Shown here: piece after piece, positions 8,167-60,170 of the stretch
How the letters are laid out: each line of letters opens with the position of its first letter
Position numbering within the stretch: the stretch's first letter is position 1
Origin: an uncultured Rickettsiales bacterium
Lineage (GTDB): Bacteria > Myxococcota_A > UBA796 > UBA9615 > CAYRNR01
Length of the DNA: 64,000 nt
Direction: 5' to 3'
Assembly: GCA_964639985.1 (NCBI GenBank)
Contig: CAZXHG010000012.1
Coordinates: 1,254 to 65,253, forward strand
Notes under the pieces: model-generated
What the model was told of the DNA's origin: nothing
The model's database searches: none
What the model saw: only the letters and a program-made list of their open reading frames with translations
Translations under genes and position numbers: made by a program

Positions 8167-8244
8167 GCTGTGCGGTTCGCGGCAGGTGAACAGGCGGGGG
8201 GCCGGGATCGGGCGGAGGTCCGCCGGGAGGAGGGGAGCACACGC

Positions 8245-40480: not shown

Positions 40481-43174
40481 ATGAGCGATGAACGCTTCGT
40501 GGTCAGTGATCATGCGATGTTCACGGTCGAGCAGTATCCCTTGCCGATCGGGGACGCTGCCAGGGATTTCAATCAGGGTTTCAGGAGTCTGAGCGACCGG
40601 GAACTTCAGAAGCAATGGCGAGACCAGTTCCTCGACTACGTCAACATCGCGGAGGATTGTTTCAGGCTGGCAACCAACGTGATGTTGGCCGAACTGTCCG
40701 TACGAGGTGACCTGGCCGATCTGAGGGAGTTCTTCACCAGCTACATGACCGAGACCATGACACTCGGCAGGTGGATTGACTCCACGTTCATGCTGGCGCA
40801 GAAGCCCACGGCTGACCAGGCGCGGAGTGAGCTGGCCGGAGGACGCTCCAGCGAACCTCGCTTCAGGAACCTGGTCGTCATCGGGTTCCCACGGAAGCAC
40901 AGCCGGCGGCAACATGCCCTCAAGATGCGTGACTATCGCAACAAGGTCGCTCACCGAAAGGGAAAGAGACAGAAAGCCAGACAAACCCCGCTGACAGATA
41001 TCCTGCGGATGCGTGACATCATGCTGGACGTGATGTCCGGCGGATTCTCCTTCCTTCGGCACTTCACACTCATTCAGGTATGCGCAAACGGGCAATGCAG
41101 GTTCATCTCCGACCTGGGTTCCTTCAGGGAATCACCCGTGCCCATCGAGAAGTTGTTCAAACACAATGATCTTGAGGAACTGATCGACGTCAGCAGGAAT
41201 GATGATCTTCTGCTGTTCGACGCCGTCCATAACTCGATCATGACCTTGTTTCCGTTCGTGGTTCTGAATCCGGCAAACAAGAAGGTGCCTGCGGTTTCCT
41301 GTTTGCATACGATTCATGGCATCGATGATCCTGCAGGAGCGACCTTCAGGTATTTCGATGGCGAGACGGACGGAGAGGACTGGCGACCCTCGACTGACCA
41401 GGAGGATCGCGCCCGAGGGTGGTTGCGAACCGTACTGCAAGCGAAGGCGCCGCCCGCAACACGGGGGGTCTTCCTGAGAAATGACCGCTGGCGAGTGCCC
41501 GGGCTCTTCGAACAGAAGATGTACGATACCAGTAGGAGGCAGAACAGGGAGTTGGCGACTCTCACCAGCGATGTTATCCCGGAAGGTACTGATGAGGCAG
41601 ATGTTGTTGGAAAGCCGTACAGGGTTGACGAGTACTTGGGGGAAGGCGCGCACGCGATAGTGTGGGGTGTCAGTGAGGTCGACGACCTCAGTAAGCGCTA
41701 TGCACTCAAGGTACTGCGACTGTGCTACGGGGAGGACAAGGTGCTCTCCCGATTCAAGCGGGAGGCCCGTGTGTTGCGCCGGTACACCATGGACGACAGG
41801 TGGTCTCCCTATCTCATCGATTGCTATGATCACGGATTCAACGAGAATGGCATGCAATGTCAATTGCTCGAAAAGGCGAAGTGGTCTCTCAAGGACAAGA
41901 TCGAGGAGTACGACCGAAGAGGAAACGAGTTGGCGGGGTGGAGCATCCCGCGGTGCATCCGTGAGTTCGATCGGTGCCGGTCAGAGCATCACGCGCGAAA
42001 CGTCGACCTTCTCGTGTCGGTTTTCTTGCGGCTGATGTTCGCCCTGTCGTGTGTCCGGAACATCCTGAGTGCGCTGGAGAAACTGCACGAAGGTGGCGTC
42101 GTGCACAGGGATATCAAGCCAGCGAATATCCTGTTCCTCCAGAGAGGCCAGATCAAGCTTGCCGATCTCGGCGCGTTGCACATTGAGAAGGAGGACTTTG
42201 AACAGACGCCTCTGGACAACATGGGGTCGACCCAGAGAAGCGAGATCATTGGGACCCATGGCTACATGCCACCGAACAGTTTCGAGTTGGCCGAGCCCAG
42301 GAATTTCAAGGCGGATGTCTTCTCTACAGGTGTCGTATTTCGAGAGATCCTGTTCGGGCTGCGTGTTACACCTGAGACCTATTTCAGCGACAGTGAAAAG
42401 GAGGTCAGGGAGTTCGGCAAGCTAGATGACCTGATCGTGGAGCAACTCGCATGGGACGGCGAGATGCTCGTCAGCGGGCTCGTCCAGAGCGCCACCAACC
42501 GCAACAAGGAGCGGCGGTGGAGTTCAACGCGGTTCCTCGACGAGGTCGTTGAATTCGAGAAGAAGTACTGCAAGAAGCTGATGCTGTGGGCAAAACGTCT
42601 GGGGTACTCCCAAGAGGGTACGGGGGCCCTGTTCGTCAGGGCGCTCACCAAGATTGGATTCGAGAACAAGACAGGACGCAATCACTGTTTCCTGTTGCCC
42701 AAGCACCCCGAAAGGGGCGAAACCAGGGAGTGTGTATTCAGGAGGAATGTCTCCAGCTTGAAGTCAACCAGTGTTGCCGCCAGGTTGTACACAAAATACA
42801 ATGTTGGCTCGCAGCAAGGACAGTTGCCACCGGACGCTGACGAACTGGACGTTCTCGAATACCTGGTCGAACACTCGGAAGAGTGCTTCACCGACCTGAT
42901 CGAGCTGGTCACCTATATGTTGGACACCTGTACCGGCTTCTACAATGACTGTCCGGCGCATGAGAAGTCCCGGAGGAACATCTCCAGGCTGCTTAAGAAC
43001 AGGAAGTACACGGACACGAATCCCGCGAAGGAAAGGGTGCGGGAAGTGATCGAGCCCGAGTCCGATGTGCATGGATACCAAGACAGACACCCGCGGCAGG
43101 AGGCCGGCGAAGCCCTCATCCACGCCGTGATGTTCGGCGGTCTCGACCAATCCGTCGAGCCGCAGGAGAGATGA
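40481..43174 (+). CDS. HEPN-like (Rx4H) domain fused to a Ser/Thr protein kinase domain, with unknown middle and C-terminal regions (897 aa)
   Basis: ATG 40481 (MSDERFVV). N-terminal ~165 aa helical with MRDYRNKVAHRKG (Rx4H, as in Abi_2/Swt1/KEN HEPN nucleases). Kinase: glycine loop LGEGAHAIVWG, Lys in YALKVLRL, catalytic HRDIKPANILF, DLG, GTHGYMPPN. Markedly lower GC than flanks. Confidence 0.6.
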   Translation: MSDERFVVSDHAMFTVEQYPLPIGDAARDFNQGFRSLSDRELQKQWRDQFLDYVNIAEDCFRLATNVMLAELSVRGDLADLREFFTSYMTETMTLGRWIDSTFMLAQKPTADQARSELAGGRSSEPRFRNLVVIGFPRKHSRRQHALKMRDYRNKVAHRKGKRQKARQTPLTDILRMRDIMLDVMSGGFSFLRHFTLIQVCANGQCRFISDLGSFRESPVPIEKLFKHNDLEELIDVSRNDDLLLFDAVHNSIMTLFPFVVLNPANKKVPAVSCLHTIHGIDDPAGATFRYFDGETDGEDWRPSTDQEDRARGWLRTVLQAKAPPATRGVFLRNDRWRVPGLFEQKMYDTSRRQNRELATLTSDVIPEGTDEADVVGKPYRVDEYLGEGAHAIVWGVSEVDDLSKRYALKVLRLCYGEDKVLSRFKREARVLRRYTMDDRWSPYLIDCYDHGFNENGMQCQLLEKAKWSLKDKIEEYDRRGNELAGWSIPRCIREFDRCRSEHHARNVDLLVSVFLRLMFALSCVRNILSALEKLHEGGVVHRDIKPANILFLQRGQIKLADLGALHIEKEDFEQTPLDNMGSTQRSEIIGTHGYMPPNSFELAEPRNFKADVFSTGVVFREILFGLRVTPETYFSDSEKEVREFGKLDDLIVEQLAWDGEMLVSGLVQSATNRNKERRWSSTRFLDEVVEFEKKYCKKLMLWAKRLGYSQEGTGALFVRALTKIGFENKTGRNHCFLLPKHPERGETRECVFRRNVSSLKSTSVAARLYTKYNVGSQQGQLPPDADELDVLEYLVEHSEECFTDLIELVTYMLDTCTGFYNDCPAHEKSRRNISRLLKNRKYTDTNPAKERVREVIEPESDVHGYQDRHPRQEAGEALIHAVMFGGLDQSVEPQER

Positions 43175-43177
43175 CCG

Positions 43178-45193
43178 ATGCTGAATACACGTGGAATCCA
43201 GTACCCGGATGACTACCCGCTCGCGATCCAGCGCCTGCAGCAGGCTTTGGTGATGCTGCGCGAGACGAGGGTCGCCCTGCTGGACAAATGGAAGCGCGAC
43301 AACCAGAAATTCCAGGACGAGTTCGTGGTAAAGGAGTCCGGCGGCACGGGTGGCGAGGACGTGCTGCACCTGCCCTTCATCTACGGACTCGAGACGCTGC
43401 TCATGCCCATCGGGTTGATCACGGCGGAGTGCGCAAAGCGCAAGCGGTTGGTGGAAAGCCTGGATGTGCTTGTGCCTGCGCTGAAGGACTTCCGAGTCGA
43501 CGACATCGACGAGAACACGATCAATGATATCAACGGCCTCGTGAAGCAGTTCGACCGGGAGATCGGACCGGCTGTACGCGCCGTCGACTACGAAGGTCTC
43601 AACGCACAGCCGTACTTCAACAAGTGGAACGACGATGCCAACGCATGGGCTACTGCGCTGTTTTTCGATGCCACGGACTACTTGAACTCGGCGGGCCTGA
43701 TCAACCCCGAGCAGTACATCGAACGGGTGAACAACCTATCGATGCTGCTCAAGAAATTTCTCTTTGCGAAGTACGTTGTCGAGTGGAAATCTGACCTGGA
43801 CGAGAACGTCCAGTTGTTCGGATTGACCTGGTACTTCAGCGACGAGTCCCGGCGACGGATCAGTCGATATTTCCAGAAAAGCGGATCCGACTTCGACGGC
43901 CCCGTGGTCCAGGCGTTCATCGAGGACTATTTCGTCTGCGAGACGCGGGCATTCTGCTCCAGGGCCGTCCTGGCGGTCTACGATGTGATCTACGACACCT
44001 TCGGCGATTCGGACATCGCGACCGACGAGATCAAGAAGCTGGTAGGCAGGATCGGGGCGAGGTTCGCCAAGGACCTAGCTCACCGCTATCTCCAGGACAT
44101 GGATAACTCCATCGAGCGAGCCTACTTCGACGATCTGTACCGCACCGACTATCTGGTACAGCTGTGGGGCGTGTACACGTCCTGCCTACACACGGGCATC
44201 ATTGCCGAGAGCCAGGGAGGGGAGGTCGAGATCGATTTGCTCGTCCGCTACCACGACGAGTTCTTGAAGCCTCTGCTCAAGACCATTCGGAGGGAGATTC
44301 GGGACGATCACTCACCCCTGTTCACGACGGTGAAGCCGTTCCTGATCTGGCTGGACGAGCCTGCAGAGATAGAGCCCGCGGACGTCCATCCGGAAGAGAC
44401 GGTGGAGAAGTTGGGGGAGGACCGTTGCCTGGTATTCCCCTACGTCTCCCTGCTCCCGATCATGTTGCGGTCGCTGGCCAACTACGCTGGTGCCCTGAAG
44501 GACATCAAGGATCCGGGGGGCAAGCAGAACGTCCGTCGGATGAGGAACGAAGCCCTCGATTGGATGCACGAGGTCCTGGAAGGTATGACCCAATTCGCCA
44601 TCTCGGACGGGGACGAAGCGGGGCTGTGGGCGTTTTCCGGGCAGTACGAACTGGCCTACACCGCATCCATCGCCGAGGCGCTGACGACCTATGCTTCGCA
44701 GTGTTTCAACGAGGTGGTGGATCTGGGGAGGACCCGGATCGTGGACTTGGCAGAGCCGTTGAGGAAGGCAGGATCGGCAGCTGGAGCGGTCGTATCCGAG
44801 GCAGACTCGGAGGCCGTGCGCGCGTTCAAGGAATTCCGCAAGGTTCTCGACCTGCAGGTCCGACGGATCGTTGCCGAGGAGTTGGACGGTCGTGATCTCC
44901 AGGGGCGGTCAGGTGGGAGCAGCCAGTGGATGGAGATATTCTTCGATATCATCGAGAACAAGGGCAACATGGCGCCTCACTCCAACGACGCCCTGCAGGC
45001 GATGAGGGATCTCATCAGGCTGTCCAAGCGGCTGGATCGGCTGCGGGGGCGCGGAGAACCGGAATGGGAGCAGCTGCGGGATAAGATCAAGTCGGGCTAC
45101 TTCAACAACGAGATAGCCTATGACGTGCTGACCCGGGAGTACCATGGCGACATCGACGACCTGCTGAAGAACAAGACGGACAAGACGAAGTGA
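43178..45193 (+). CDS. Hypothetical protein (671 aa), no recognisable domain; middle gene of the low-GC island
   Basis: Starts 4 nt after the stop of the HEPN-kinase gene. Uninterrupted ORF in the low-GC region. Its TGA overlaps the GTG of the next gene. Confidence 0.55.
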   Translation: MLNTRGIQYPDDYPLAIQRLQQALVMLRETRVALLDKWKRDNQKFQDEFVVKESGGTGGEDVLHLPFIYGLETLLMPIGLITAECAKRKRLVESLDVLVPALKDFRVDDIDENTINDINGLVKQFDREIGPAVRAVDYEGLNAQPYFNKWNDDANAWATALFFDATDYLNSAGLINPEQYIERVNNLSMLLKKFLFAKYVVEWKSDLDENVQLFGLTWYFSDESRRRISRYFQKSGSDFDGPVVQAFIEDYFVCETRAFCSRAVLAVYDVIYDTFGDSDIATDEIKKLVGRIGARFAKDLAHRYLQDMDNSIERAYFDDLYRTDYLVQLWGVYTSCLHTGIIAESQGGEVEIDLLVRYHDEFLKPLLKTIRREIRDDHSPLFTTVKPFLIWLDEPAEIEPADVHPEETVEKLGEDRCLVFPYVSLLPIMLRSLANYAGALKDIKDPGGKQNVRRMRNEALDWMHEVLEGMTQFAISDGDEAGLWAFSGQYELAYTASIAEALTTYASQCFNEVVDLGRTRIVDLAEPLRKAGSAAGAVVSEADSEAVRAFKEFRKVLDLQVRRIVAEELDGRDLQGRSGGSSQWMEIFFDIIENKGNMAPHSNDALQAMRDLIRLSKRLDRLRGRGEPEWEQLRDKIKSGYFNNEIAYDVLTREYHGDIDDLLKNKTDKTK

Positions 45194-46224
45194 ACATCGT
45201 CGCGTATTCGTACAAGGGCGGCTCCGGAAGGACGACCGCGGCGATGAACATCGCCGCCAACCTCTTCCGCCGGGGCAAGATCGTTTGCTGCATCGACTTC
45301 GACATCGGTGCGCCAGGCATGCACATGATCCTGGAAACGACCATTCCGCCGAGGGAAGGCGAAACCGACCTGATCGCTCGGCGGCTCGGTGACGTCTCCC
45401 CGCTTGGAGTGCAGCATTTCTTCAACAACCGTTACCCGCGCCCCGGCGTGGACGAGAGTACGTTCGTCGAGCAGGCGGTGGTCGACTACAAGGAGCATTA
45501 CGCCCAGCTCGCCTGGACGGAAGACGATGCACTCAACAAGAGAGACATGACGCAGGACGCCTTCGACCAGGGCGAGTTGCTGTACCTGGTCGCCTCCCCG
45601 GTTGCCGAATCGATTCGAGCCCTGGATGCCCAGAAGTTCGACATGATGGGATTCCGGCGCCGCTACCGTTCCCTGATGGAGCGGGTCGCCGACTACATCA
45701 ACGACAAGCGCGGCACCGACGAGGTGAGTGCCGAGGACATCTACTTCGTTCTGGATTCGGCGAGTGGCTTGACGCCGTTCAGCCTGCCGGTCCTCTTCCT
45801 GGCGCACGTGGTGCTCGTGTTCTTCCGGTGGAGCCACCAGCACATCGTCGGTACCGAACAGAATGCCGAGATCCTGCACCACAACCTCGACGAGCGGGTC
45901 GACTACTCGAACTGCCGCATCTACAAGGTGGGCTCCTGTTATGTCCCGGCCGGGGACAGCGATACGCTGAATCAGATGAAAGAAGAAGGGGATCTGGCGG
46001 CACGCCGCATCTTCGATCGGGAGACAGAACTTCGGACGGCCCTGGAGTCCGACCGGATGATCCGCTTTATCGATAGCATCCCCGAGCACCCCGCGTTGAA
46101 GTACTACGAGCGAATCGTCGCGCTGGCGATCGACGCGAAGACGAACTACGGCGGTGTCCGCGAGGCGCTGGACAACATCTGCGCACAGCTGGAAGACGAC
46201 CGACTGGTGCTCGACATCGATTGA
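45190..46224 (+). CDS. ParA/MinD-like (SIMIBI) ATPase with degenerate P-loop
   Basis: Deviant Walker A YKGGSGRTTAAMN (KGGxGKT expected; P-loop Lys replaced by Arg). A-prime-like CCIDFDIGAPGMH. GTG start overlaps the upstream TGA (GTGA). Confidence 0.6.
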   Translation: MNIVAYSYKGGSGRTTAAMNIAANLFRRGKIVCCIDFDIGAPGMHMILETTIPPREGETDLIARRLGDVSPLGVQHFFNNRYPRPGVDESTFVEQAVVDYKEHYAQLAWTEDDALNKRDMTQDAFDQGELLYLVASPVAESIRALDAQKFDMMGFRRRYRSLMERVADYINDKRGTDEVSAEDIYFVLDSASGLTPFSLPVLFLAHVVLVFFRWSHQHIVGTEQNAEILHHNLDERVDYSNCRIYKVGSCYVPAGDSDTLNQMKEEGDLAARRIFDRETELRTALESDRMIRFIDSIPEHPALKYYERIVALAIDAKTNYGGVREALDNICAQLEDDRLVLDID

Positions 46225-46253: not shown

Positions 46254-47282
46254 TCAGCGGACAAAACGGCCCCCCTGGCCGACGTCGTCCGGCGGCGGAT
46301 CCACGCGGTGCAAGCCGCTATCGGCGGCCGCGGCCGCCAGCGTGGCCACCAGTTCGTCGGCGGCGGCAGGCAGGTCGTCGAACAGGTAGCGAGGCAGGAA
46401 CGGGATCAGCTTGAGGGTCAGGTCGGCGTCGATGGCCGCCAGTCGGGCGGCCACAGCTCGGACCTCGAACACGTCGATGTAGCCGGGGACGACCAGGAGT
46501 GAAGGGCGGATCAACTCGACCCGCTCCGCGGGACCGAATTCCGCCCGAAGCCGCTCGATGTTGCGCCACACGCGAGTGTTACCTGTACCGGTGAGGGCAA
46601 GATGGACGGGTTCGGTGCCAGCCTTGAGACCGATGTTGAAGCCACCGCCCGAGTCGTGGACCAGGTGGGCGAATGGCAGCAGGAGATCCCCCGGCGCCGT
46701 CAGGTTGGTCTCGGCGCAGATACGCATCACCCGGTCGGCGTAGCGTTCCCGAACGAGCACGGCGATGCGTGTCACGGCCGCCAGCTGGACATCTGGTGTG
46801 CCCCCACAGAAGCAGACGCACGTCGTACGGTCGTCGATCCAGTCGAGGATCTCGTCGTCGGTGAATCGGGGCTTGGCCGTCTCGGCCATCGTCTTGTGGA
46901 TCCAGTCCTGGCAGAACAGACAGTCGAAGTTGCATCCCGCGGTGAACACCGCGAGGTTACGGCAGCCTGCCTCGACACCGGGACTGACCGCGAAATCAGG
47001 GTACCCGCAACCTGTGGTTCCGGGACACTGCCACGAGGCGATGCAGTTCGCCGGGTGATCGTCGTAGAACCCCATGGCGACCAGCATGTCGTCTTCCGGC
47101 ACAGGTCGTACCGGATCCGGCATGTCGCCAGATTGCCTCAGAGCCTGCCTTCGAGCCTGCTCCACGAGGGGAAGGGCCTGCTTAGGGTCGGTGCGCACGC
47201 AATCGACGCAGCATCCCACCGATCGAGCCACGATCACATCGTGACGACCGCACAGGGCACAGGGGAGAGGGGGGGCGTCCAT
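46254..47282 (-). CDS. Radical SAM enzyme (PflA-activase-like) with N-terminal Cys-rich zinc-ribbon-like motif
   Basis: Start MDAPPLPCALCGRHDVIVARSVGCCVDC. Radical SAM CX3CX2C in AVFTAGCNFDCLFCQDW. Glycine-rich VCFCGGTP. Confidence 0.7.
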   Translation of the reverse strand: MDAPPLPCALCGRHDVIVARSVGCCVDCVRTDPKQALPLVEQARRQALRQSGDMPDPVRPVPEDDMLVAMGFYDDHPANCIASWQCPGTTGCGYPDFAVSPGVEAGCRNLAVFTAGCNFDCLFCQDWIHKTMAETAKPRFTDDEILDWIDDRTTCVCFCGGTPDVQLAAVTRIAVLVRERYADRVMRICAETNLTAPGDLLLPFAHLVHDSGGGFNIGLKAGTEPVHLALTGTGNTRVWRNIERLRAEFGPAERVELIRPSLLVVPGYIDVFEVRAVAARLAAIDADLTLKLIPFLPRYLFDDLPAAADELVATLAAAAADSGLHRVDPPPDDVGQGGRFVR

Positions 47283-47286: not shown

Positions 47287-47979
47287 CTACCAGAATCCCT
47301 TCCACCACATCGCGAAGATGCTCTGCCACCAGTAGTCCAGGGCCTGGAAGTTCGGCGTGCCGGGAACGCCGGACGTTGCTTCGATGGCAGTCGCAGTTGC
47401 GGCCGTGTCGGCGCCTGCGAGCAGTCGTGTCGGGATGGCAGCGTGTCCGGGATACGGCTCGAACCGGGTGTCCTCGTCCGAATCGAGTTCGGCGCGGGTC
47501 GCCGAACCGAAGAAACGGAAGACGAGCTCGCGCATCTCGCCGTGCAGCTGCGTACGCCGGGCACGGCGCATCGCCGACCACCGCGGTATCTCAGCGCAGA
47601 TCAGATCTGCCAGCCGGCGCGCGGCGAGGTCGCGACGGCCTGGGCGGTATCGCCACTGGTCGGCGACGGAGGCGGTCGCGATGAGGCCGCCCGTCTCGCT
47701 GGCCTGTGAAGCGAGGTCCTGGACGAATTCCGGCCAGGGGCCGCATACGATCCAGGCGCCAGTGTCCGAGAGGTAGGACCGGGTGTTTGTTCCGTGGTCG
47801 AGTGTCACCCGGCCCGGTCCGTCGAGTACCTGTTCCGCAGAACACGCCGATGCCCATGCGCCGGGATCTTCGAGCAACAGGGTCGTCAGATGATGATTGG
47901 CCACCACGACGTGTCGGACGTCATCGTGGTCTATGACCTCGTAACGGCGCCCCTCAACCTTGACTAGGCGAAGCGGCAT
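47287..47979 (-). CDS. Hypothetical protein (230 aa), Trp-rich C-terminus
   Basis: ORF between two radical SAM genes, overlapping both by a few nt. No recognisable motif. Confidence 0.45.
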   Translation of the reverse strand: MPLRLVKVEGRRYEVIDHDDVRHVVVANHHLTTLLLEDPGAWASACSAEQVLDGPGRVTLDHGTNTRSYLSDTGAWIVCGPWPEFVQDLASQASETGGLIATASVADQWRYRPGRRDLAARRLADLICAEIPRWSAMRRARRTQLHGEMRELVFRFFGSATRAELDSDEDTRFEPYPGHAAIPTRLLAGADTAATATAIEATSGVPGTPNFQALDYWWQSIFAMWWKGFW

Positions 47980-49415
47980 GCATCCACCTCGGCGCCGGGG
48001 CCTCTCTCCAGCCGTTGCAGTCGGCCTAGTTCTTCCCGTGCCCTTTTTCGGAGCAAGCCCACGTCCAGATTCGGTCCGTCACCCGTCTGGCTGGTGAACA
48101 GGTTGGCTCTTCCGGTAGTGCTCACCCATCGCTTCGAGAGGATCGATCCAGTGTAGGCCTCGAAGAAGAGCTTCTCCACGTCAGACGGATCGATGCCTGG
48201 ATAGCGAACTACCGACCGCACACCGCTGTACAGCCGGAGGTCGGTGGAGGCCAGGCGGTCCTCGGCCAGGAGAGCCTGGAAGAGCGGCGTTCCGGGAACC
48301 GGGATGAGCAGCGTGAACACGTTGACGCAACCGCGATCCGTGAATTTTTCGGTAGCCCTCAGGCGGCGGTCGAGGCTGGTAGCATCGTCATCGGGCTCGC
48401 CGAGCAGGAACGATGTGGTGGGGAGCATGTCTGCCGCGACGAGCCGGTCCACAGCTCTGAGTGCGGTATCTGCGGCGAGTCCCTTGCTGTACCTGGCCAG
48501 GTTGGACTCCTCCAGCGACTCCACCCCGATCCACATCATCCGGCACCCAGCCTCGTGCAGGAGGGGGAGTAGATCCGCGTGTTGGACCACCCAGGCCGCA
48601 TGCCCGAAACACCACCAGCGGATCTCAAGCGACCGGTCGATCAGACCGCGGCAGATCGCCTCGACGCGGTCGGCACGGACGGTGAACGTGTCGTCCCAGA
48701 TAGACCAGTCGTGGATACCGTGCGTGACCACGCCGTGTTCGACTTCATCCAGCACGGCATCGATCGGTCGGGAGACATACCGTCCCTTGAAGTGTGCCGG
48801 TGTCGCGCAGAACACGCAGCGATGTGGGCAGCCTGTCGCGGTCAGGATGGGGAGGACCGGGAAGACCTCGCTTCCGGGGTCGTCGAGATAGAGGGAACGG
48901 GCGATGCCATAGCTCTCGATCCCTGGAACCAGGCAGGAGAGGCCATCCGCGCGTCGAAATCGAGGGCCATTCACGGGGCTGGGGGCCAGGTGGGAATCCA
49001 TGGCGGCTTCATCTGGAACCAGCCCATCCACGCTCCGGGCATCCTCTGCCGCCAGATCGGGAAAGCGGCGCGGCATGTATCCACCGAGCAGGATCTTCAC
49101 CGTGGGCAGCACCTCTCGTATACCGTGGGACAACTCGAGGTCGTAGGGATATGCTGCGGCGCCCATGAACACGTGTAGGTGGAGTTCCGGGAACGCTCCG
49201 ACGAGCACCAGGTCCGGATCAAGATCCGCCACGCGACTCGCGAGTGTCGGTGCGTCCTCGCGGAGCATCTGCCCGTCGAGGACCGTGACGTCGTGACCAC
49301 GATCCGTCAGCTTGGCGGCAACGCGGCAGGCGCCGTACGGCGGGCTGCTCATCCCCTGCGCGTAGTAGAACCACGAGAGGGCGCGGTTCCAGGCGTTGAC
49401 GAAGACGATCCTCAA
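47964..49415 (-). CDS. B12-binding-domain radical SAM protein (class B)
   Basis: N-terminal Rossmann-like B12-binding region (RIVFVN..., DLVLVGAF, KILLGG). Radical SAM motif LTATGCPHRCVFCATP. Confidence 0.75.
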   Translation of the reverse strand: MRIVFVNAWNRALSWFYYAQGMSSPPYGACRVAAKLTDRGHDVTVLDGQMLREDAPTLASRVADLDPDLVLVGAFPELHLHVFMGAAAYPYDLELSHGIREVLPTVKILLGGYMPRRFPDLAAEDARSVDGLVPDEAAMDSHLAPSPVNGPRFRRADGLSCLVPGIESYGIARSLYLDDPGSEVFPVLPILTATGCPHRCVFCATPAHFKGRYVSRPIDAVLDEVEHGVVTHGIHDWSIWDDTFTVRADRVEAICRGLIDRSLEIRWWCFGHAAWVVQHADLLPLLHEAGCRMMWIGVESLEESNLARYSKGLAADTALRAVDRLVAADMLPTTSFLLGEPDDDATSLDRRLRATEKFTDRGCVNVFTLLIPVPGTPLFQALLAEDRLASTDLRLYSGVRSVVRYPGIDPSDVEKLFFEAYTGSILSKRWVSTTGRANLFTSQTGDGPNLDVGLLRKRAREELGRLQRLERGPGAEVDACRFA

Positions 49416-50326
49416 CGACCATCCCCCTCGGGACCAGGAACAGCTGCCAGCCAGGACCGACTGAAGGCCAGCGTCTCGTCGCGACGGGGGTAGAGACGGC
49501 GGAAGTCGGCCCCCCGCGCGACGACGGCCTCCCGGGCGATGTGTCCGGGAAGCAGGGACCGGATCTCCCGTTTGATCCTCTCCTCGTCGAACGGTCGACA
49601 GGAGAAGAGATCGAGGTAGGCTTCGTCGCGTTCGGGATAGGCGTGCAACGTGATGTGGCTCTCGGCGATCATCGTCATCGCACTGAGCACCGGTCCGTGG
49701 GATGCTGTCTGGTTTCGCACCAGGTACGGGCGCATGATCGGCGTCATGCCCACGGCAGAGGGCAGCCGGTCGAACAGGTCGAAGAGCCGGTCCATGTCGT
49801 CGGGGCCATCGTACTCCTCGATATCCAGGAACAGGTGGGGTCCGAAATCGCTCGCGGGTTGGTGCGGTCGTTCGCTAGGGCTGTTCTGGGTCCGATCGAG
49901 CACGCCAAATTTCACATGTCGGCACGGGAACGCGTCCTGTAGGGCTGAGGCCACCTCCTCCTCGTCGTAGGGATCGGCGCTCACGAGGTCGAAGAAGAAT
50001 TCCTCGCGAAAGGGGAAGGTGTGCAACGTGATGTGCCCTCCGGCCAGGAACAAGAACGAGGAGATGCCTGCGTCCTCCGGCACGACCCCGTTGTAATAGG
50101 GGAGTATGAACGGCGGCATGGCCGGCCGTAGCCCCAATTCGGGGGGGACCTCTTCGAGGAATTCGTACACCAGATGGATGTCGTCGAAACGGGATCGGTA
50201 CCCCTGGATGCCGTCGTAGTGGAGGTGCTTCAAGTCGGTCTCCAGGCTGGGCGTGATCCGGCTGGATGCTGGGCGGCGGTAGGGCCTCGGTTGCCCGGGG
50301 GGTGGTGTCTGGTGAAGCCTGCCCAC
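49412..50326 (-). CDS. Tandem-duplicated S-adenosylmethionine decarboxylase-like (pyruvoyl-dependent) protein
   Basis: Two AdoMetDC(SpeH)-like halves. Half 1 has LFLAGGHITLHTFPF and lacks the processing Ser. Half 2 has MIAESHITLHAYPE, the canonical ES-H self-cleavage/pyruvoyl site. Confidence 0.6.
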   Translation of the reverse strand: MGRLHQTPPPGQPRPYRRPASSRITPSLETDLKHLHYDGIQGYRSRFDDIHLVYEFLEEVPPELGLRPAMPPFILPYYNGVVPEDAGISSFLFLAGGHITLHTFPFREEFFFDLVSADPYDEEEVASALQDAFPCRHVKFGVLDRTQNSPSERPHQPASDFGPHLFLDIEEYDGPDDMDRLFDLFDRLPSAVGMTPIMRPYLVRNQTASHGPVLSAMTMIAESHITLHAYPERDEAYLDLFSCRPFDEERIKREIRSLLPGHIAREAVVARGADFRRLYPRRDETLAFSRSWLAAVPGPEGDGR

Positions 50327-50404: not shown

Positions 50405-50550
50405 TCAGTCGTCGTACCACAGCGGTATCGAATCGGCCCTCAGGTCGTGCTTGGTGAACCCTGCCAGTTTGGCGTGATCGAAGTGCCAGCGCCGATCAGC
50501 CCTCCGCGCTAGGTCCAGGTGCAGGTAGCCAGCGTCAACGAAGATCATCC
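50405..50550 (-). CDS. Candidate small peptide (47 aa), possible leader/precursor of the radical-SAM cluster
   Basis: ATG preceded by AGGAGGAGG. Peptide MIFVDAGYLHLDLARRADRRWHFDHAKLAGFTKHDLRADSIPLWYDD. The ORF also opens further upstream at GTG 50641. GC3 bias weaker than in neighbours. Confidence 0.25.
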
Positions 50551-50637
50551 TCCTCCTCATACACGATCTCCCAGCGAAGCCCTCGGCGGGTCCGCCACTG
50601 TTGCGAGCTGCAGTATAGACAAGGTCCGGGGAGAGGT

Positions 50638-50907
50638 TCACCCCTCCTGGCTACGGTCAGGAGGAGAGGAGCCTGGAGTACCGCCCAGCCACTCCACAAC
50701 CACCAACCCCAACGGCCCCGCCATCGTCCACACCCCATCCGTGACCATGTCCCACACCTGGTAGCCCAGCCCGAAGTCCTTCCCCACGGCCCAGAAGTCC
50801 CACCAGTCGCGGGCCTCGCTCACGGACTGGATCAGCATCGCCGCCCCGAGCGCCCACAAACAGGTATGGGCGTGCCTCCATGCGACAGCGCGCACCAGCA
50901 GGTACAC
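50638..50907 (-). CDS. Small Trp-rich hypothetical protein (89 aa)
   Basis: Strong GC3 bias. One hydrophobic segment. Its stop overlaps GTG 50641 of the next ORF (GTGA). Confidence 0.3.
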   Translation of the reverse strand: MYLLVRAVAWRHAHTCLWALGAAMLIQSVSEARDWWDFWAVGKDFGLGYQVWDMVTDGVWTMAGPLGLVVVEWLGGTPGSSPPDRSQEG

Positions 50908-50998: not shown

Positions 50999-51739
50999 TC
51001 ACCGCACGATCTCGTGTCCCAGGATGGCCACGGTGTCCACGCGCAGGCGCAGGCGCATGTTCTTCTTCTGATCGGTCTCGAACAGCAGGTCGGGGCAGGC
51101 GGACAGGCGCTGGCCCTCGCGCTCCAGCAGGCGGGTCCACCATTGCCGCAGGCGGCTGCGGCTGGTGTAGACGCGGCTGCCCGGGTTGGCCGTGGGGCTG
51201 GTGGGGCCGCCGTAGGCCTCGAGCACCTCGAGCTCGTCCTCCCACGACAGCCAGCCGAAGTCGCGCTGGCCGTCGTAGCACGACGCCAGGGAGCGCAGCA
51301 GGGTCCACTGCTGGCGGCGGATGGTGTTGTCCTCCACCGGGTGGGCGCCGATGGCGATGCGGACCAGGCCGGGCTCGGGCAGGCTGAGGCGGCGGATGCG
51401 GGTGCGGCGGGCGGTGGACTCCACGCCCTGCGGCTCGGGCAGGCCGCGCAGCACGAGCCGGTGGGAGCCGAGCTCGACCACGTCGTCCGGACCCACGTAC
51501 ACGGTAGCGGCCTCCAGCCAGTTGCCGTTGTACAGCGAGCCGTTGGTGGAGATGTCCTGCAGGCACCAGCCGTTGCTCCAGCGCAGCACCAGGTGCAGGT
51601 GGGACACCGTGCGGCCGTCCAGGCGGATGTCCGCGCGCGCGGACCGTCCCATCAGCAGGTAGGGATCGTCCTGTGGGACGCGCCACTCCTCCAGCTCTCC
51701 GTCGACCTCGATCTCGACCACCATGTCCATGGGCTTCAC
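50999..51739 (-). CDS. FHA domain protein
   Basis: FHA core LLMGRSARADIRLDGRTVSHLHLVLRWSNGWCLQDISTNGSLYNGNWL. Confidence 0.75.
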   Translation of the reverse strand: MKPMDMVVEIEVDGELEEWRVPQDDPYLLMGRSARADIRLDGRTVSHLHLVLRWSNGWCLQDISTNGSLYNGNWLEAATVYVGPDDVVELGSHRLVLRGLPEPQGVESTARRTRIRRLSLPEPGLVRIAIGAHPVEDNTIRRQQWTLLRSLASCYDGQRDFGWLSWEDELEVLEAYGGPTSPTANPGSRVYTSRSRLRQWWTRLLEREGQRLSACPDLLFETDQKKNMRLRLRVDTVAILGHEIVR

Positions 51740-51754
51740 CCCTCCTGTCGTTCG

Positions 51755-53857
51755 TCAGCGTCGGTCCAGCTCGCATTCGCGCGCTGACGCGGTTCGTTGC
51801 AGGCTCTTGGCCTCACCCCACGGTACGCCGCGCTGCTCGACGTACTTCAGGCAGCGGTCGCTCTCGCTGTGCTCGCAGGCGAGGAAGGACTCGGCCACGT
51901 CGTCGCACCCCAGCGCGACCATGGTCATGTAGCCGCACATCTCGGCCGTGCCGCCCACGGGCTCGTCCGGGGGCACCGGGATGGCCGGGCCGCCCAGGGC
52001 GCTGCACTCGCGGTGGCCGGAGCGGTGGATGTGGGAGACCACCCGGTCGAAGGTACGGCCGCTACCGTCCCAGTTGTCCAGCATCCAGCGGCTCCAGTGA
52101 AGCCATGCGTCCATGTCCCGGGCGGACGCGGCCGCGCGGGTGCAGTCCTCCACCAGCTCCAGTCCGTTGATGGGGGCGGAGGGCAGCGCAGGTTCGGCCG
52201 CGTCGCAGGCGTCGAGCGCTGCGCTGGCGTGGGCCAGGGCGGCGGCCGCGTTGCCGTCGATCCACTGGCGGTTGGCCTCCGAGGCCTCCATCATCACCAG
52301 CACCCACCACGCCTCCACCTGCAGCCACTCGTCGTCGGTCAGCTCGATCGCGGCCGTGGCCCTCTCCCGCGCCTCGTCGCACCAGGCGCTGCGGTCGTCT
52401 ACCCCGGACTTCAGCAGGCGGCAGGCAGCGCCTGTCAGGGTGGCACGGGCCAGCAGGGCCTCGGGGGTCTCGCCCGCCTCCAGGGCGGCGAGGGTGAGCA
52501 GGTCGCCCTCCTCGAAGCGCTCCTGGGCCCAGCGCGCGTTGGTCAGGTGCCAGCCCTGCTGCCAGATCCGCGCCAGGGTGAGCATGCCCTGGACCTCGGC
52601 CGGAGCCTGCTGGATTGCGCTGGCCTCGGTGTCCGCGATCAGGCTGGCGAGGTACGTGGCGCCGTTGTGCTCGTACACGGTCTTGTGCTCCTCCAGCCTC
52701 GCCTGCAGCGTGTCCACCTGCGCCTGCGCCTCCTGCTCGTGGCGGTGCCGGTCCTGGTCCCGGGCCGCGCCGTGGCCGGCGAGGAACGCCGCGACCACGG
52801 CTGGCGGCGCCAGCAGGACCAGGCCGACCAGCAGCCGGACGGCCCAGCGGGCCAGGCCGGTTGCGGGTTCGTGAACCGTGGATTCACGGGGTTCTTCGTG
52901 CGCGGGTGTCTCGCCGCTGTGCAGCGAGCGGTCGTCGACCGGGTCCGTGTCCGTGCCCGCGGACGGTGGTGTGCGCGGGTCAGGGACCCGGGTGGTGAGC
53001 GCCTCCACCGAGTCGTTGGCCGGATCGCCGAGGTCCGCAGCCTCGCCCGCGGCAGCCCGGAGCACCTCGGCCGTGGGTGGGCGGTCCTGCGGCTTCTCCC
53101 GCAGGCAGGCCCGCATGATGCGATCCCAGGGGGACTGCAGCGGAGGCGGGAAGCCGGGATCGCCCGGGGGCTTCTCGCCCATCAGCAGCGCGACCATGCA
53201 GCCGAACGAGAACAGGTCCGAGGCCAGGTAGGCCATGGACTTGAAGTTCTGCTCGGGTGCGCCGTATCGGCGGGTGAGCAGGAAGATGGGCGACGGCTGG
53301 CCCGCGTGGCCGACCTGGCGCATGGTGTCGAAGTCGATCAGGTGCACGCCGTGGGCGGTCACGATCACGTTCTCGGGCTTGACGTCGCCGTGCAGGGCGT
53401 TGAGCGCGTGTAGCCGGTCGAGCACGGCCGCGAGCTGGCGCAGGATCTCGCCCCGCTGGTCGCGAGCCATGCCCATCCACACGCGGTGCAGGCTCTGGCC
53501 CTCGACCCAGGCCAGGGTGACGTAGGGCAGACCGGTGCCATCACCCAGCGGGGCCAGTCCGCCGTCCAGGATCGGGGGCAGCCCCTCGATATCGCCGATG
53601 GCGGCCCGGACGCGGTAGCCCTCGAAGATCTGGGGGAGGTCGGCCGGGAGGGACGCGGTGGCCCTGGACTCGCCGCGGGCTGCACTGCGCACGAGGGGCT
53701 CGAGCTGCATGTCCAGGGGTACGTGCGTGATCCGGGTCAGGGCGTCCCCGCCCTGGAATCGGGTGCGCAGCACGTCCCGTCCCTGGTCCATGTCGCGCTT
53801 GACGATGTCCAGCAACCCGTAGCGGTCGTCGAGCTGGTAGGGCAGCAACGTCTTCAT
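51755..53857 (-). CDS. Ser/Thr protein kinase (non-RD), single TM, large C-terminal extracytoplasmic helical domain
   Basis: Catalytic loop HGDVKPENVIV. IDFD. YGAPEQ. TM LLVGLVLLAPPAVVAAFLA. Confidence 0.8.
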   Translation of the reverse strand: MKTLLPYQLDDRYGLLDIVKRDMDQGRDVLRTRFQGGDALTRITHVPLDMQLEPLVRSAARGESRATASLPADLPQIFEGYRVRAAIGDIEGLPPILDGGLAPLGDGTGLPYVTLAWVEGQSLHRVWMGMARDQRGEILRQLAAVLDRLHALNALHGDVKPENVIVTAHGVHLIDFDTMRQVGHAGQPSPIFLLTRRYGAPEQNFKSMAYLASDLFSFGCMVALLMGEKPPGDPGFPPPLQSPWDRIMRACLREKPQDRPPTAEVLRAAAGEAADLGDPANDSVEALTTRVPDPRTPPSAGTDTDPVDDRSLHSGETPAHEEPRESTVHEPATGLARWAVRLLVGLVLLAPPAVVAAFLAGHGAARDQDRHRHEQEAQAQVDTLQARLEEHKTVYEHNGATYLASLIADTEASAIQQAPAEVQGMLTLARIWQQGWHLTNARWAQERFEEGDLLTLAALEAGETPEALLARATLTGAACRLLKSGVDDRSAWCDEARERATAAIELTDDEWLQVEAWWVLVMMEASEANRQWIDGNAAAALAHASAALDACDAAEPALPSAPINGLELVEDCTRAAASARDMDAWLHWSRWMLDNWDGSGRTFDRVVSHIHRSGHRECSALGGPAIPVPPDEPVGGTAEMCGYMTMVALGCDDVAESFLACEHSESDRCLKYVEQRGVPWGEAKSLQRTASARECELDRR

Positions 53858-53870
53858 CGGAGACCCTCCC

Positions 53871-55640
53871 TCACTGCAGGTACCCCAGGTCGTGAGCCGC
53901 CTCGATGATGCGAATGGCGGCCGGGCCTGCCGCCTCTGCGCCCCCGCCGCCCCGTGGAACGACCACCGCGATGGCCAGCCGACCGGGGGCGTGGGCGCCG
54001 CAGGCCTCGGCGTCGGCGGGTTCGGCCAGGGCCACGAACCACGAGTGGGGACGAAGACCGGTGGCGCCGGGCTCGTACCCGAAGACCTGTTCGTCGACCA
54101 TGCCCGCGGCGTCGGCGGTGCCGGTCTTGCCGTAGATGCGTACCCCGTCCACGCGGTCGAGCCGGTGGGCGGTGCCGTGTGTCATGGCCCGGCTCATGCC
54201 CGCCAGTACGGCCTGCAGCCCGGGCTCGTGGTCCGTGACCAGGGTCTCCTCGCAGGCGGCGTCGAGCGCGAGGTCCGGCGGGCAGCGCCGATACACACCA
54301 CCGCTGCCGATCGTGGCCACGAGGCGGGCAGCCTGCGACACGTTCAGCGCGGCCGCGCCCTGGCCGAAGGCCGTGGACGCCAGCTGCCTGGAGCCGGCGG
54401 GGCCGGGCTCGAACGTGGTATCCCAGCCCATGTCCACGCCGTCGGCGACCAGCGACTGGAAGGAGGCGGGGCCCAGGTCCAGGCCGAGCTGCCCGAAGTA
54501 CACGTTGCAGCTGTCCTCGAGCGCGCCCACCAGCTCCAGGTCCGCGCCGTGGTTGGCGTCGAGGTGGTGGTCGTGAACCGGCCGCGGCCAGCCCGGTGTG
54601 GTGAAGTAGGGGCCGTCCGCGTCCCTCAGCGTGCACGGGAAGACCCAGCCGGTGCGCACGGCGCAGCCCTGGCCGTGCACGGGGATGCCGTTGCGGACCG
54701 CGGCCAGCGCGGTGAACAGCTTGGCGGCCGAGCCCGCCTGGAAGAACCCCCGCACGCCGGTCTTGTCGGGCCAGGGGCCGTAGATGCCCACGAAGCGCGG
54801 CTCGCCGGCCTCCAGCCGGTCGATCCACGTGCCGCTGGACAGGTCCACGTCCGGGACCTGGACCCGGGCCAGGATCCGGCCGGTGTGAACGTCGAGCACC
54901 ACGGCCGCGGCCGCCTCGCCCTGCTCGGCGGCCTCGTCGAGGATCGCGGCGATCCGGGCCACCAGCCGGGCGTCCAGGGACAGCCGCACCGAGCGCGACG
55001 CCTTGTCCTGGACCACCGCGTCGATCGCGGCCTCGCGATCGACGGGGCGCAGGTGCAGCAGGGGCACGAACGCGGTCAGGTCGGCGGCTGCGTGGGCCAC
55101 CGGCCGCACGGCCGCGCCGTCGGCCAGGGCCTCGGCGCGCTCGCGGCCGTCGTCGGGTTCGGTGCCCTGCTCGACCGCGAGCACCAGGCGCTCGCGGCCG
55201 TCGGGCCCGCGGGTCTTCCACGCGATCACGGGCCGTGCCCGGTCCGGGTACCCGCGCAGGACCGTCTCGTACTGCCGTTCGAGCATCCACGGCTGCCGCA
55301 GGGTGAGGTCGCCGTCCGGGGGTCCCAGCAGGGTACCGATGTCGTCGCCCAGCGGCCAGGTCCTGCTGCCGTCCGGCGCGGTCCCCGCGAGGACCTCGTC
55401 GTTGCGGTCCAGGATCTCGCCGCGCAGCAACTGGCCGCTGATCGCCTCCAGCCGGGGATCGTTGTCCAGGCGCACGGTGCCGTCGCGCAGGGTGGTGACC
55501 ACGGCCCGCGCCGAGGTGGCCGGTCCGTTCATGACCCCGAGCCACGCCAGCCAGCCCCCGGCCGCCGCCAGGGTGAGCACGCTGGCGACGAGCAGCACCG
55601 ACAGGGTGGCTCGCAGCTCGCGCAGCTCGCGGGTGACCAC
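53871..55640 (-). CDS. Class B penicillin-binding protein (transpeptidase); in frame with the upstream RodA-like gene, boundary approximate
   Basis: TM LSVLLVASVLTLAAAGGWLAWL. SxxK in GSAAKLFTA. SxN in DSCNVYF. KTG in IYGKTGTAD. Confidence 0.7.
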   Translation of the reverse strand: MVTRELRELRATLSVLLVASVLTLAAAGGWLAWLGVMNGPATSARAVVTTLRDGTVRLDNDPRLEAISGQLLRGEILDRNDEVLAGTAPDGSRTWPLGDDIGTLLGPPDGDLTLRQPWMLERQYETVLRGYPDRARPVIAWKTRGPDGRERLVLAVEQGTEPDDGRERAEALADGAAVRPVAHAAADLTAFVPLLHLRPVDREAAIDAVVQDKASRSVRLSLDARLVARIAAILDEAAEQGEAAAAVVLDVHTGRILARVQVPDVDLSSGTWIDRLEAGEPRFVGIYGPWPDKTGVRGFFQAGSAAKLFTALAAVRNGIPVHGQGCAVRTGWVFPCTLRDADGPYFTTPGWPRPVHDHHLDANHGADLELVGALEDSCNVYFGQLGLDLGPASFQSLVADGVDMGWDTTFEPGPAGSRQLASTAFGQGAAALNVSQAARLVATIGSGGVYRRCPPDLALDAACEETLVTDHEPGLQAVLAGMSRAMTHGTAHRLDRVDGVRIYGKTGTADAAGMVDEQVFGYEPGATGLRPHSWFVALAEPADAEACGAHAPGRLAIAVVVPRGGGGAEAAGPAAIRIIEAAHDLGYLQ

Positions 55641-56975
55641 CGCGGCGGGCCCGCGCTCGGCCACGTGCAGCGGCAGCACCGCGGCCACGAGCACCATGGC
55701 CATGCTGCTCTTACCGAACGAGAGGAAGGGGACCACGACCCCGGTGAGCGGCAACAGGCCAGTGGTGCCGCCGAAGATCACGACCCACTGTGCGAGCAGC
55801 AGCAGGGAGCAGCCGCCGGCCAGCAGCGCCCGCTCGGGCGTGCCCGTGCGGGCCGCGACCCACAGCCCGTGCACCACGACCGCGCCGAGCAGGCCCAGGT
55901 AGGTCAGCCCGCCCCACAGCCCGGTCTCCTCGGCGAGGTGGGCGAGGGCCAGGTCGGTGTGGCCGGCCTCCAGCGCGCCGATCATGGCGTGGCCCAGGCC
56001 GCGGCCGTGCAGTCCGCCCGCGGCGATGGCCCACAGGGAGTGGGCGAGCTGGGATCCGAACCGGCGTCCGTTGAGCCACGGGTCGAGCCACATCTGGAAA
56101 CGGGTCTCGAGGGTCGTCGAGCCCGTGATCGACGGATCGGCCGCGATCAGGGCGGTCGCGGCGGCCACGAGCGCGAAGGCCACGACCACCCAGCCCGCGG
56201 ATCGCGTGGCCGCGTAGAACACGCCCAGGAACACCAGCGCCAGGATCAGGGAGGGGCCGAGGTCGTTGACCAGCACCAGCCCGCCGAACACGGCCAGCAG
56301 GAACAGCAGGGAGCCGACGAACAGCGCTGGCCGTGGCACGCGCAGCGGCCCCACCTTGATCCGGTGCCAGCGCAGCCGGGCCGCGCGGCGGCCCAGGGTG
56401 ACCCCCAGCAGCGCCACGAACAGCAGCTTGACCGCCTCCAGCGGCTGCACCATGGCGCCGCCGAGGGCCAGGTTGATGTGCGTGTCCGTTCCCGCGGGGC
56501 CGGTGCCGGCGAAGCGAAGCAGCACGGCGCCGATCCCGGCGGTGACGGCCAGGGGGACGCGGAAGCGGTGCAGGACCTCGGTGAGGTCCCAGGGCTGTAC
56601 GACCAGGGCCGCGGCCAGCAGGCAGGCCAGCCCCACGCCGTGGGCGAACCCGGGACCGGGCCAGTCCTGGGCGTGGATCGGGTCGCCGTAGCCCATCTGC
56701 ACGATCAGGCCCAGCCCGGCTGCGCCCGCGACCGCGGGCAGGAACAGGGGCACGGCCAGCGGCGATGCTGCCCGCCGCAGGCTCCAGGCGCGGGCCCCGG
56801 CGAGCACGGCGAAGCCCGCGGCAAAGGCGAGCATCGCGAGCCGGGCCTCGGCCTCGGCCGCGGCCGCGTCGCGCACCAGCGGCCCGGCGCGCAGGGCGGC
56901 CTGCTCCAGCGTGCGATCCAGGGCGATGTCGGCGCCGACGCACGCGCCGATCACGACCAGGGCCAGGGCGACCAT
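55640..56975 (-). CDS. SEDS-family RodA/FtsW-like peptidoglycan polymerase
   Basis: Start MVALALVV near 56975; upstream ORF sequence to 57554 is R/G-rich artefact. About 10 TM helices. Conserved SEDS segments (GLGHAMIGALEAGHTDLALAHLAEETG, PLTGVVVPFLSFGKSS). Confidence 0.7.
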
Positions 56976-56989
56976 CTCGCCGATGCGGA

Positions 56990-58438: not shown

Positions 58439-58439
58439 C

Positions 58440-59327: not shown

Positions 59328-59331
59328 CCGG

Positions 59332-60066: not shown

Positions 60067-60170
60067 CGACCTCCTCGCTGTCCATCCTTACATCGCTTTC
60101 CGGCGTTTCTTCCGGTGGTCAGGTGGCGGTCAGGAATAAGCGACGAATGGTGCAGTAACCTCGGAGGCGC

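Follow-up and report, generated by a model that had tools for sequence, protein, structure and literature searches.

The gene and its two halves

The window analysed here is a stretch of 64,000 nucleotides from an uncultured Rickettsiales bacterium (contig CAZXHG010000012.1, positions 1,254 to 65,253). On its minus strand it carries a gene for a protein with two domains resembling S-adenosylmethionine decarboxylase (AdoMetDC) in a single chain. The gene stands first in its operon and is followed by a gene for a B12-binding radical SAM (S-adenosylmethionine) enzyme, one for a 230-residue protein with a Trp-rich tail, and one for a second radical SAM enzyme (Table 1). An earlier note on this DNA had described positions 49412-50326 as a fused pseudo-dimeric AdoMetDC-like protein, lying in a radical SAM context, in which the second half alone keeps the Glu-Ser self-processing site. 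The 304-residue open reading frame (ORF), with AGGHITLHTFPF in its first half and AESHITLHAYPE in its second, was recovered as the translation of this minus-strand interval, but its N-terminus was over-extended by 31 codons. Translation almost certainly begins at the TTG at position 50233, because a GGAG motif lies 6 nucleotides upstream of it, because it lines up with the Met of 34 homologues (whose N-termini all read M-x-H-F/L), and because the gene called by JGI on a contig that is essentially the same encodes an identical protein of 273 residues. The 31 extra N-terminal residues are probably not translated, and residues are numbered throughout on the 273-residue protein. The radical SAM context was borne out: the stop codon of the decarboxylase gene overlaps the TTG start of the B12-binding radical SAM gene as TTGA, which points to translational coupling of the two.

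Table 1. Positions of the tandem decarboxylase gene, its predicted functional residues and the surrounding genes (window coordinates unless a locus is named)
Feature	Position	Strand	Basis
Tandem-domain AdoMetDC-fold proenzyme gene, 273 aa, TTG start, TGA stop	49412..50233	-	ORF and translation, PF02675, JGI call
GGAG motif resembling a ribosome-binding site, 6 nt upstream of TTG start	50240..50243	-	direct sequence reading
Half 1 (aa 1-118), AdoMetDC-fold domain without processing site	49880..50233	-	profile match, repeat in predicted structure
Half 2 (~aa 125-244), catalytic AdoMetDC-fold domain	49502..49861	-	best Pfam stretch, profile match, TIGR03330
G65-G66-H67 in place of Glu-Ser-His; G66 at the pyruvoyl-Ser position	50033..50041	-	GGH near-universal, 120 homologues
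His71 of half 1 (T. maritima His68), proposed trans-acting active-site His	50021..50023	-	invariant 51/51
Glu191-Ser192, predicted self-cleavage site	49658..49663	-	codons gag agc read; conservation
Cys212 (T. maritima Cys83, Ser+20), predicted proton donor	49598..49600	-	invariant 51/51
B12-binding radical SAM gene, TTG start	47964..49415	-	PF02310 and PF04055
230-aa protein with Trp-rich tail, very rare family	47287..47979	-	no Pfam, NCBIfam or PADLOC match
Second radical SAM gene (289 aa, PflA/AmmeMemoRadiSam-like, GCNFDCLFCQDW)	46254..47123	-	PF04055
KGGVGR-motif ParA/MinD-like ATPase, convergent with decarboxylase operon	45190..46224	+	NF047398, E=1.3e-20
671-aa protein upstream of ATPase, no family assignment	43178..45193	+	no Pfam match
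897-aa protein with Ser/Thr kinase domain	40481-43174	+	PF00069; conserved cluster member
NodU/TobZ-type carbamoyltransferase	38637 to ~40484	+	PF02543, PF16861
PdaD-type gene heading an otherwise syntenic cluster	L098:6325-6843	+	PF01862, VSS site intact

When the decarboxylase was compared with Pfam, the AdoMet_dc model (PF02675) matched it in two stretches (E=3.9e-22), scoring 79.1 bits where the cut-off is 25. Profiles were then built for each half from 22 sequences. Both matched the AdoMetDC of Thermotoga maritima separately, that of half 1 with E=1.5e-4 (1tmi/1tlu; residues 6-113, full length) and that of half 2 with E=1.2e-5 (1tlu). Alignment of one half with the other by hhalign gave a probability of 96.9% (E=1.7e-10, 27% identity), and in the AlphaFold2 prediction the strands and helices of half 1 repeat the pattern of half 2. 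The NCBIfam AdoMetDC equivalog model TIGR03330 aligned to residues 131-221, that is, to half 2. The profile search and the structure prediction that the earlier note had proposed as checks thus both agreed with a fused pseudo-dimer of AdoMetDC-like halves.

The essential residues of T. maritima AdoMetDC are Ser63, His68 and Cys83 (Li et al. 2023, PMC10407285). Their equivalents were followed through 51 diverse tandem representatives, taken at 50% identity. In half 2 of the window protein, S192, H197 and C212 occur at the same spacings (+5 and +20) as in the T. maritima enzyme, and the Ser and the Cys were found in 51/51 sequences; the position of Glu191 was Glu in 46 and Gln in 5. In half 1 the place of Ser63 is taken by G66 (Gly in 43/51; no representative has Glu-Ser here), and that of Cys83 by A86, a position at which no representative had Cys. 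The residue after Ser63 is His in both halves, namely H67 (45/51) and H193 (51/51). With GGH in half 1 and E191-S192-H193 in half 2, the Glu-Ser pair is kept in the second half alone, as had been proposed. For His68 the halves changed roles: H71 of half 1 was His in 51/51, whereas H197 of half 2 was His in 40/51 and was replaced by Tyr, Phe, Val, Thr or Gln in the other 11. Another position, which we take to correspond to Ser55 of the T. maritima enzyme, was Ser or Thr in 50/51 for half 1 (S58) and Ser in 32/51 for half 2 (S184). Proteins that have lost the half 2 His include P0306, P0315, P0317, P0318, P0320, P0384 and P0392, among others, and several of them look low in GC.

Since the half 2 His can be replaced while that of half 1 is never lost, the half 1 His is proposed to act in the live site. 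The conservation is complementary, with the pyruvoyl-Ser and the Cys in half 2 and the His (together with the Ser) in half 1, and this points to a single composite active site between the halves, as in eukaryotic AdoMetDC but with the opposite order of halves. In human AdoMetDC, Ser68 and Cys82 lie in the N-terminal half, and Ser229 and His243 in the dead C-terminal half. By likeness to His243, His71 would belong to the active site of the window protein.

The following scheme is proposed. The proenzyme would fold as a single-chain pseudo-dimer of the class 1b AdoMetDC fold, forming one four-layer alpha-beta-beta-alpha sandwich. Glu191-Ser192 lies in the turn between predicted strands E180-189 and E192-199, and cleavage is expected there. 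Self-cleavage in half 2 would split the protein into a large beta chain (residues 1-191, predicted 21.7 kDa), which includes the whole of half 1, and a small alpha chain (residues 192-273, predicted 9.5 kDa), and the N-terminal Ser192 of the alpha chain would become the pyruvoyl cofactor. The composite site would take pyruvoyl-192, His193 and Cys212 from half 2 and His71 (with Ser58) from half 1; the symmetry-related second site, with Gly66 and no Cys, would be dead. Half 1 was nevertheless the more conserved of the two, with a mean column identity of 70% vs 62% for half 2. By analogy with the putrescine site and the prozyme of eukaryotic AdoMetDC, this strictly conserved dead half (GGH and its flanking motifs) may be a ligand-binding regulatory site.

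The tandem family and its substrate

Relatives of the decarboxylase were collected by a word-indexed search, by a scan of one genome per species and by an exhaustive HMMER search. The word-indexed search gave 469 related clusters. The top 120 were 262-299 residues long, except for one fusion of 522 residues, and showed 46-57% identity; half 2 carried AESH in all of them, and half 1 carried GGH in all but two (EGH and QGH). The scan placed the family in at least 293 genomes, mainly of Rokubacteria/Methylomirabilota, Myxococcota (including all sampled Sorangium), Bacillota (Thermincola, Phosphitispora) and Aminicenantes. With HMMER, 55 representatives (50% identity) were obtained at E<1e-30, along with more divergent tandem forms. 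Public annotation calls the family "S-adenosylmethionine decarboxylase" only, and no description of it was found in the literature searched. The AdoMetDC label is probably wrong for this large tandem family. The window protein is typical of it, differing from the ≥90% consensus in only 4 of 83 columns (C55A, S74P, F214P, Y244F).

Single-domain proteins of 130-150 residues also scored well against the tandem profile and carried the motifs of both halves (MTKIMPPYV, VPEDWGISGFVLIAESHISIHTF and DxFSCKxFD). The two halves of the tandem protein have G[LM]xPxMxP[FY] in common, and they also share motifs with the single-domain subfamily (MTKIMPPYV...IAESHISIHTF). These shared motifs suggest that the tandem form arose by internal duplication within this subfamily, whose members (P0341, P0354, P0369, P0371, P0411, P0336, P0347, P0358) likely represent, on their motifs, its homodimeric ancestors. 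The three that were tested, P0341, P0336 and P0354, scored just above the NCBIfam AdoMetDC cut-off; by association, the single-domain homologues may be arginine decarboxylases. Some tandem proteins are themselves fused to other domains: P0392 to a radical SAM domain of the MSMEG_0568 family, P0379 to an N-terminal CxxCxxCC zinc/iron domain, and P0315 and P0320 to an N-terminal domain of 245-335 residues without family assignment.

As to the reaction, the genomic context in relatives points to decarboxylation of L-arginine to agmatine by a tandem-domain, SpeDA-type pyruvoyl arginine decarboxylase, a reading to which we give a probability of about two in three. Four independent lines of context favour arginine as the substrate. 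Firstly, in 19 Rokubacteria/Methylomirabilota loci, counted by tblastn, a deoxyhypusine synthase (DHS) homologue of the SpeY type starts 6-57 nucleotides downstream of the tandem gene, and P0067, the fusion of 522 residues, joins the tandem decarboxylase to DHS in one chain. Bacterial DHS homologues (SpeY) condense two agmatines, and SpeY always comes with an arginine decarboxylase, which may have any one of three folds (2026 JBC paper, PMC13625781). Secondly, in the divergent tandem member P0384 (602 residues) the same chain also carries a full-length agmatine deiminase (PF04371, E=2.2e-79; TIGR03380, E=5.9e-102). Thirdly, argG, encoding argininosuccinate synthase, was found immediately downstream in 5 Myxococcota loci by the same tblastn count. 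Fourthly, in a related radical SAM cluster (L098) the slot of the tandem gene is occupied by an intact PdaD-type pyruvoyl arginine decarboxylase of 172 residues (PF01862, VSS cleavage motif), whose stop codon overlaps the start of the B12-binding radical SAM gene as ATGA. As read from the gene order, this is a non-homologous displacement of the tandem gene by PdaD. Coupling to the agmatine-consuming partners SpeY and AguA is seen at the level of the family, and the support that bears on the window itself is the PdaD swap.

Several points weigh against this reading. The functional evidence is guilt by association, inferred mostly from other clades of the family. No agmatine-consuming partner accompanies the gene in the window itself, the agmatine deiminase fusion P0384 belongs to a distant subfamily, and two of the six cluster versions (L095 and L100) carry no decarboxylase in the available sequence. 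The closest sampled relative with context, P0003 (54% identity), lies outside the cluster. The window protein also carries C55A and S74P at highly conserved half 1 positions (Cys in 94%, Ser in 99%), and these changes could mark a shifted specificity. For the architecture, the trans role inferred for His71 leans on the layout of the human enzyme.

The two half 1 substitutions lead to the alternative that survives best, although we consider it unlikely: within the cluster the enzyme might act on an arginine that has been modified, or on some other amino acid that the radical SAM enzymes produce, for example a C-methylated arginine. The coupled B12-binding radical SAM enzyme would fit this, being of a type that is typically a C-methylase, as would the position of the cluster-linked members in two clades apart from the SpeY-linked one. 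However, 79 of the 83 highly conserved columns are kept, a standard-looking PdaD substitutes for the protein in L098, the decarboxylase gene comes first in the operon, and the location of P0003 outside the cluster argues against a cluster-specific lineage.

A bona fide AdoMetDC, supplying decarboxylated SAM for aminopropyl transfer or as an unusual co-substrate of the adjacent radical SAM enzymes, seems somewhat less likely still. It agrees with the public annotation, with the fact that the sole family matches are AdoMetDC models (PF02675, TIGR03330), with an ESH...H...C motif that resembles true SpeD and not the ETS type of ornithine decarboxylase (ODC), and with the co-transcription of two SAM-using enzymes. 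However, the decarboxylase scored 51.1 bits with TIGR03330, below its cut-off of 75.65, and the Spermine_synth domain of a spermidine synthase (SpeE), the enzyme that a true AdoMetDC needs as its partner and that is typically encoded next to it, was absent from all annotated neighbourhoods inspected, whole genomes not having been searched. The family partners instead use agmatine or make arginine, and the cluster slot can be filled by a PdaD arginine decarboxylase. Moreover, Li et al. 2023 (PMC10407285) showed that homologues which have taken on a new function are often wrongly annotated as AdoMetDC.

It is very improbable that the protein is a SpeDC-type ornithine (or lysine) decarboxylase. 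Published tandem SpeD fusions do have ODC as their C-terminal half, but the C-terminal half here carries AESH and not the ETS cleavage site of SpeDC halves (Fig. S5, Li et al. 2023). SpeDC has four diagnostic residues, Gln, Thr, Phe and Tyr (Li et al. 2023), whose exact positions were deduced here from Fig. S5. The SpeY pathways, which take agmatine and not putrescine, also speak against an ornithine decarboxylase, as do the agmatine deiminase fusion and the PdaD swap, which both favour arginine. A non-catalytic pseudo-enzyme or scaffold of AdoMetDC-like shape, for which one half being already dead might be cited, is scarcely credible, as the invariance of Ser192, His193 and Cys212 (51/51) would not be expected without catalysis.

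The radical SAM gene cluster

Six distinct versions of the cluster were retrieved. In the window the operon of decarboxylase, B12-binding radical SAM enzyme, tail protein and second radical SAM enzyme is convergent with genes for the ATPase, the 671-residue protein, the kinase and the carbamoyltransferase. The tandem decarboxylase is also present in L094/L097, where three genes (B12-binding radical SAM, tail protein, second radical SAM) are followed by the decarboxylase and an LRR-Roc-COR-TIR gene, and in L034/L093 (Aminicenantes), where the order is a 533-residue protein, the ATPase, the same three genes, a KAP NTPase and the decarboxylase. In L098/L099 PdaD precedes the three genes, with the ATPase, kinase and carbamoyltransferase convergent. 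No decarboxylase was seen in L095/L096 (the three genes, a 592-residue protein, carbamoyltransferase and kinase) or in L100-L102 (a 523-residue protein, the three genes, carbamoyltransferase, kinase, a 731-residue protein, ATPase and methyltransferases). Thus 4 of the 6 versions contain a predicted pyruvoyl arginine decarboxylase, of two unrelated folds and in varying gene order, which speaks for the use of agmatine, or of an arginine derivative, by the cluster.

Orthologues of the B12-binding radical SAM enzyme were found in all six versions at 39-52% identity, and those of the second radical SAM enzyme form a group of ~19 clusters (47-68% identity). The carbamoyltransferase has orthologues in L095, L098 and L100 (48-65% identity), the KGGVGR ATPase has homologues in L034, L098 and L100, and the 671-residue protein has a weak homologue in L034. 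The tail protein belongs to a family with 14 relatives among 5.8 billion proteins and ends in the invariant L.YWW[QE]S[IV]F..WWKGFW-COOH. Its AlphaFold2 model had a confidence score (pLDDT) of 86.3, and the matches to the predicted fold were weak and generic. The WWKGFW tail could be a radical SAM substrate tail, or an anchor for a membrane or a partner.

Among characterised relatives the B12-binding radical SAM enzyme showed remote similarity to AprD4/TsrM only. The second radical SAM enzyme had no match among solved structures, and the ATPase matched MinD/Soj only at the level of the P-loop. A known anti-phage system was considered but gained no support, as PADLOC recognised none of the core genes: the decarboxylase, both radical SAM enzymes, the tail protein and the 671-residue protein went without a match, and the search gave only weak matches for the ATPase and a QatA-like KAP NTPase in L034. 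In the literature searched there was nothing relevant on KGGVGR or on clusters of radical SAM, carbamoyltransferase and arginine decarboxylase genes.

The radical SAM context is not a trait of the family, since among 98 family loci the cluster was present only in the window, L034 and L094/L097; the genes of Sorangium and Phosphitispora, and most others, stand alone or have other neighbours. Nor is the clade of the window protein uniformly linked to the cluster, as P0003, of the same neighbour-joining clade, lies between a metallophosphoesterase and a CxxCxxCC protein (the latter adjoining P0003 in L104-L106). In the neighbour-joining tree the cluster-linked tandem genes fall into two separate clades, and together with the position of P0003 this makes it seem that recruitment has occurred more than once. 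A 96-residue ORF with a weak PvlArgDC (PF01862) match lies just downstream of the LRR-Roc-COR-TIR gene in L097 (8176-8466, plus strand), where the tandem decarboxylase is already present; it may be the remnant of a displaced PdaD gene.

Within the window cluster the decarboxylase would supply agmatine. We tentatively suggest, with the odds somewhat against it, that it is the agmatine-supplying entry enzyme of an undescribed, rare and horizontally shuffled pathway leading to an agmatine-derived small molecule or to an agmatine-modified or cross-linked protein tail. The proposed members are the two radical SAM enzymes, the 230-residue WWKGFW-COOH protein, the KGGVGR ATPase, the TobZ/NodU carbamoyltransferase and the giant kinase. 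A role in conflict or signalling is possible because several copies adjoin NLR-like, TIR or KAP NTPase genes.

Neighbours of the cluster copies resembling conflict systems (L094:4572-8012, L094:10266-12776, L034:6102-7880, L098:3720-6098) were of the LRR-Roc-COR-TIR, NACHT-pentapeptide, HNH, HepT-like and ABC/SMC-like ATPase types, and a QatA-like KAP NTPase with pentapeptide repeats was among them. Such neighbours suggest that the cluster sits in variable islands. An NMT1/THI5-like ABC substrate-binding protein gene adjoins the carbamoyltransferase gene in the window (37352-38545, minus strand) and in L098 (17926-18915, with a permease), and in L095 an ABC ATPase gene (2-319) flanks the B12-binding radical SAM end; the transporter may belong to the cluster.

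At the junction of the carbamoyltransferase and kinase genes the window has a poly-G tract (40463-40472, plus strand), whose ten G residues fuse the two ORFs into a frame of 1591 residues. The JGI contig has nine G residues and separate genes with an ATGA overlap, and this is the only difference between the two over 20.8 kb (99.995% identity). It reflects either an assembly error or a phase-variable tract.

Between the decarboxylase gene and an FHA-domain gene lie two small minus-strand ORFs (50405-50560 and 50638-50838; 51 and 66 residues in the JGI call). Upstream on the same strand (50999-62000) is a cell-wall signalling cluster of actinobacterial style, with a PP2C phosphatase, a fused FtsW/RodA-transpeptidase, a Ser/Thr kinase of 700 residues and the FHA protein. 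Elsewhere the window encodes a papain-like protease (5644-8166), a TPR protein of 1296 residues (8170-12060) and several large ORFs without family assignment. No tRNA gene was found in the 64 kb, and the GC content is 67%.

Relation to known enzymes and significance

The SpeDA enzymes that have been characterised have one domain per subunit and pair into homodimers with two active sites. The tandem protein resembles them in its class 1b AdoMetDC fold and its ES-H...H...C motif, and its family resembles them in its genomic ties to SpeY and to enzymes of agmatine metabolism (SpeDA: Li et al. 2023, PMC10407285; crenarchaeal ArgDC). It differs in being a fusion in which one site is live and the other dead, and would be an architectural variant of SpeDA. 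Neither PMC10407285 nor PMC13625781, both from the same laboratory, mentions tandem lineages or this architecture.

The SpeD1-SpeD2 (SpeD-SpeDC) fusions likewise have two AdoMetDC-fold domains in one chain of ~270 residues. In them the N-terminal half is a live AdoMetDC, with AESH, and the C-terminal half is an ODC with the ETS cleavage site (Fig. S5), or is degraded in Victivallis vadensis, whose form self-processes in one half (PMC10407285). In the window protein, by contrast, it is the N-terminal half that is dead, with GGH, while AESH marks the C-terminal half as the live one. This reversed arrangement of the motifs indicates a different, apparently independent construction. The motifs that the two halves share with each other and with the single-domain subfamily suggest that the tandem family came from an internal duplication of its own.

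The earlier note had likened the protein to the eukaryotic fused dimer. Comparison with the class 2 AdoMetDC of eukaryotes (1msv/1jl0 from human, 1mhm from potato) and with the AdoMetDC/prozyme of T. brucei bore this out insofar as a two-half chain has one live and one dead half and, as proposed, one composite site, but the order of the halves is reversed, the active half being C-terminal here and N-terminal there. Identity is ~11%, the eukaryotic insertions are absent, the likely substrate differs, and the eukaryotic small beta and large alpha chains contrast with the large beta and small alpha chains predicted here. PdaD, which occupies the same cluster slot in L098 and is likewise translationally coupled to the B12-binding radical SAM gene, appears as a functional analogue for these two reasons; its fold and its Ser-Ser cleavage motif are unrelated, and there is no homology. 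The window protein would thus fit best as a SpeDA-like pyruvoyl decarboxylase with tandem domains and a single site, new in architecture but of a known enzyme kind.

If the proposed function is correct, several hundred bacterial genes annotated as S-adenosylmethionine decarboxylase, across Methylomirabilota, Myxococcota including Sorangium, Bacillota and Aminicenantes, are mis-annotated, and the tandem enzymes would supply the arginine decarboxylase that agmatine-dependent polyamine pathways have lacked. The recruitment of arginine decarboxylases of two unrelated folds by a rare radical SAM cluster would point to new agmatine-based chemistry. The family would also be an independent evolutionary repeat, with reversed polarity, of the way in which eukaryotic AdoMetDC originated, by duplication, fusion and loss of one site. 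The conservation data show that degeneration was complementary: the dead half keeps the very His that it would need to donate, and the live half keeps Ser and Cys but is free to lose its own His. The long-standing duplication-fusion model would thereby become directly testable in simple bacterial proteins.

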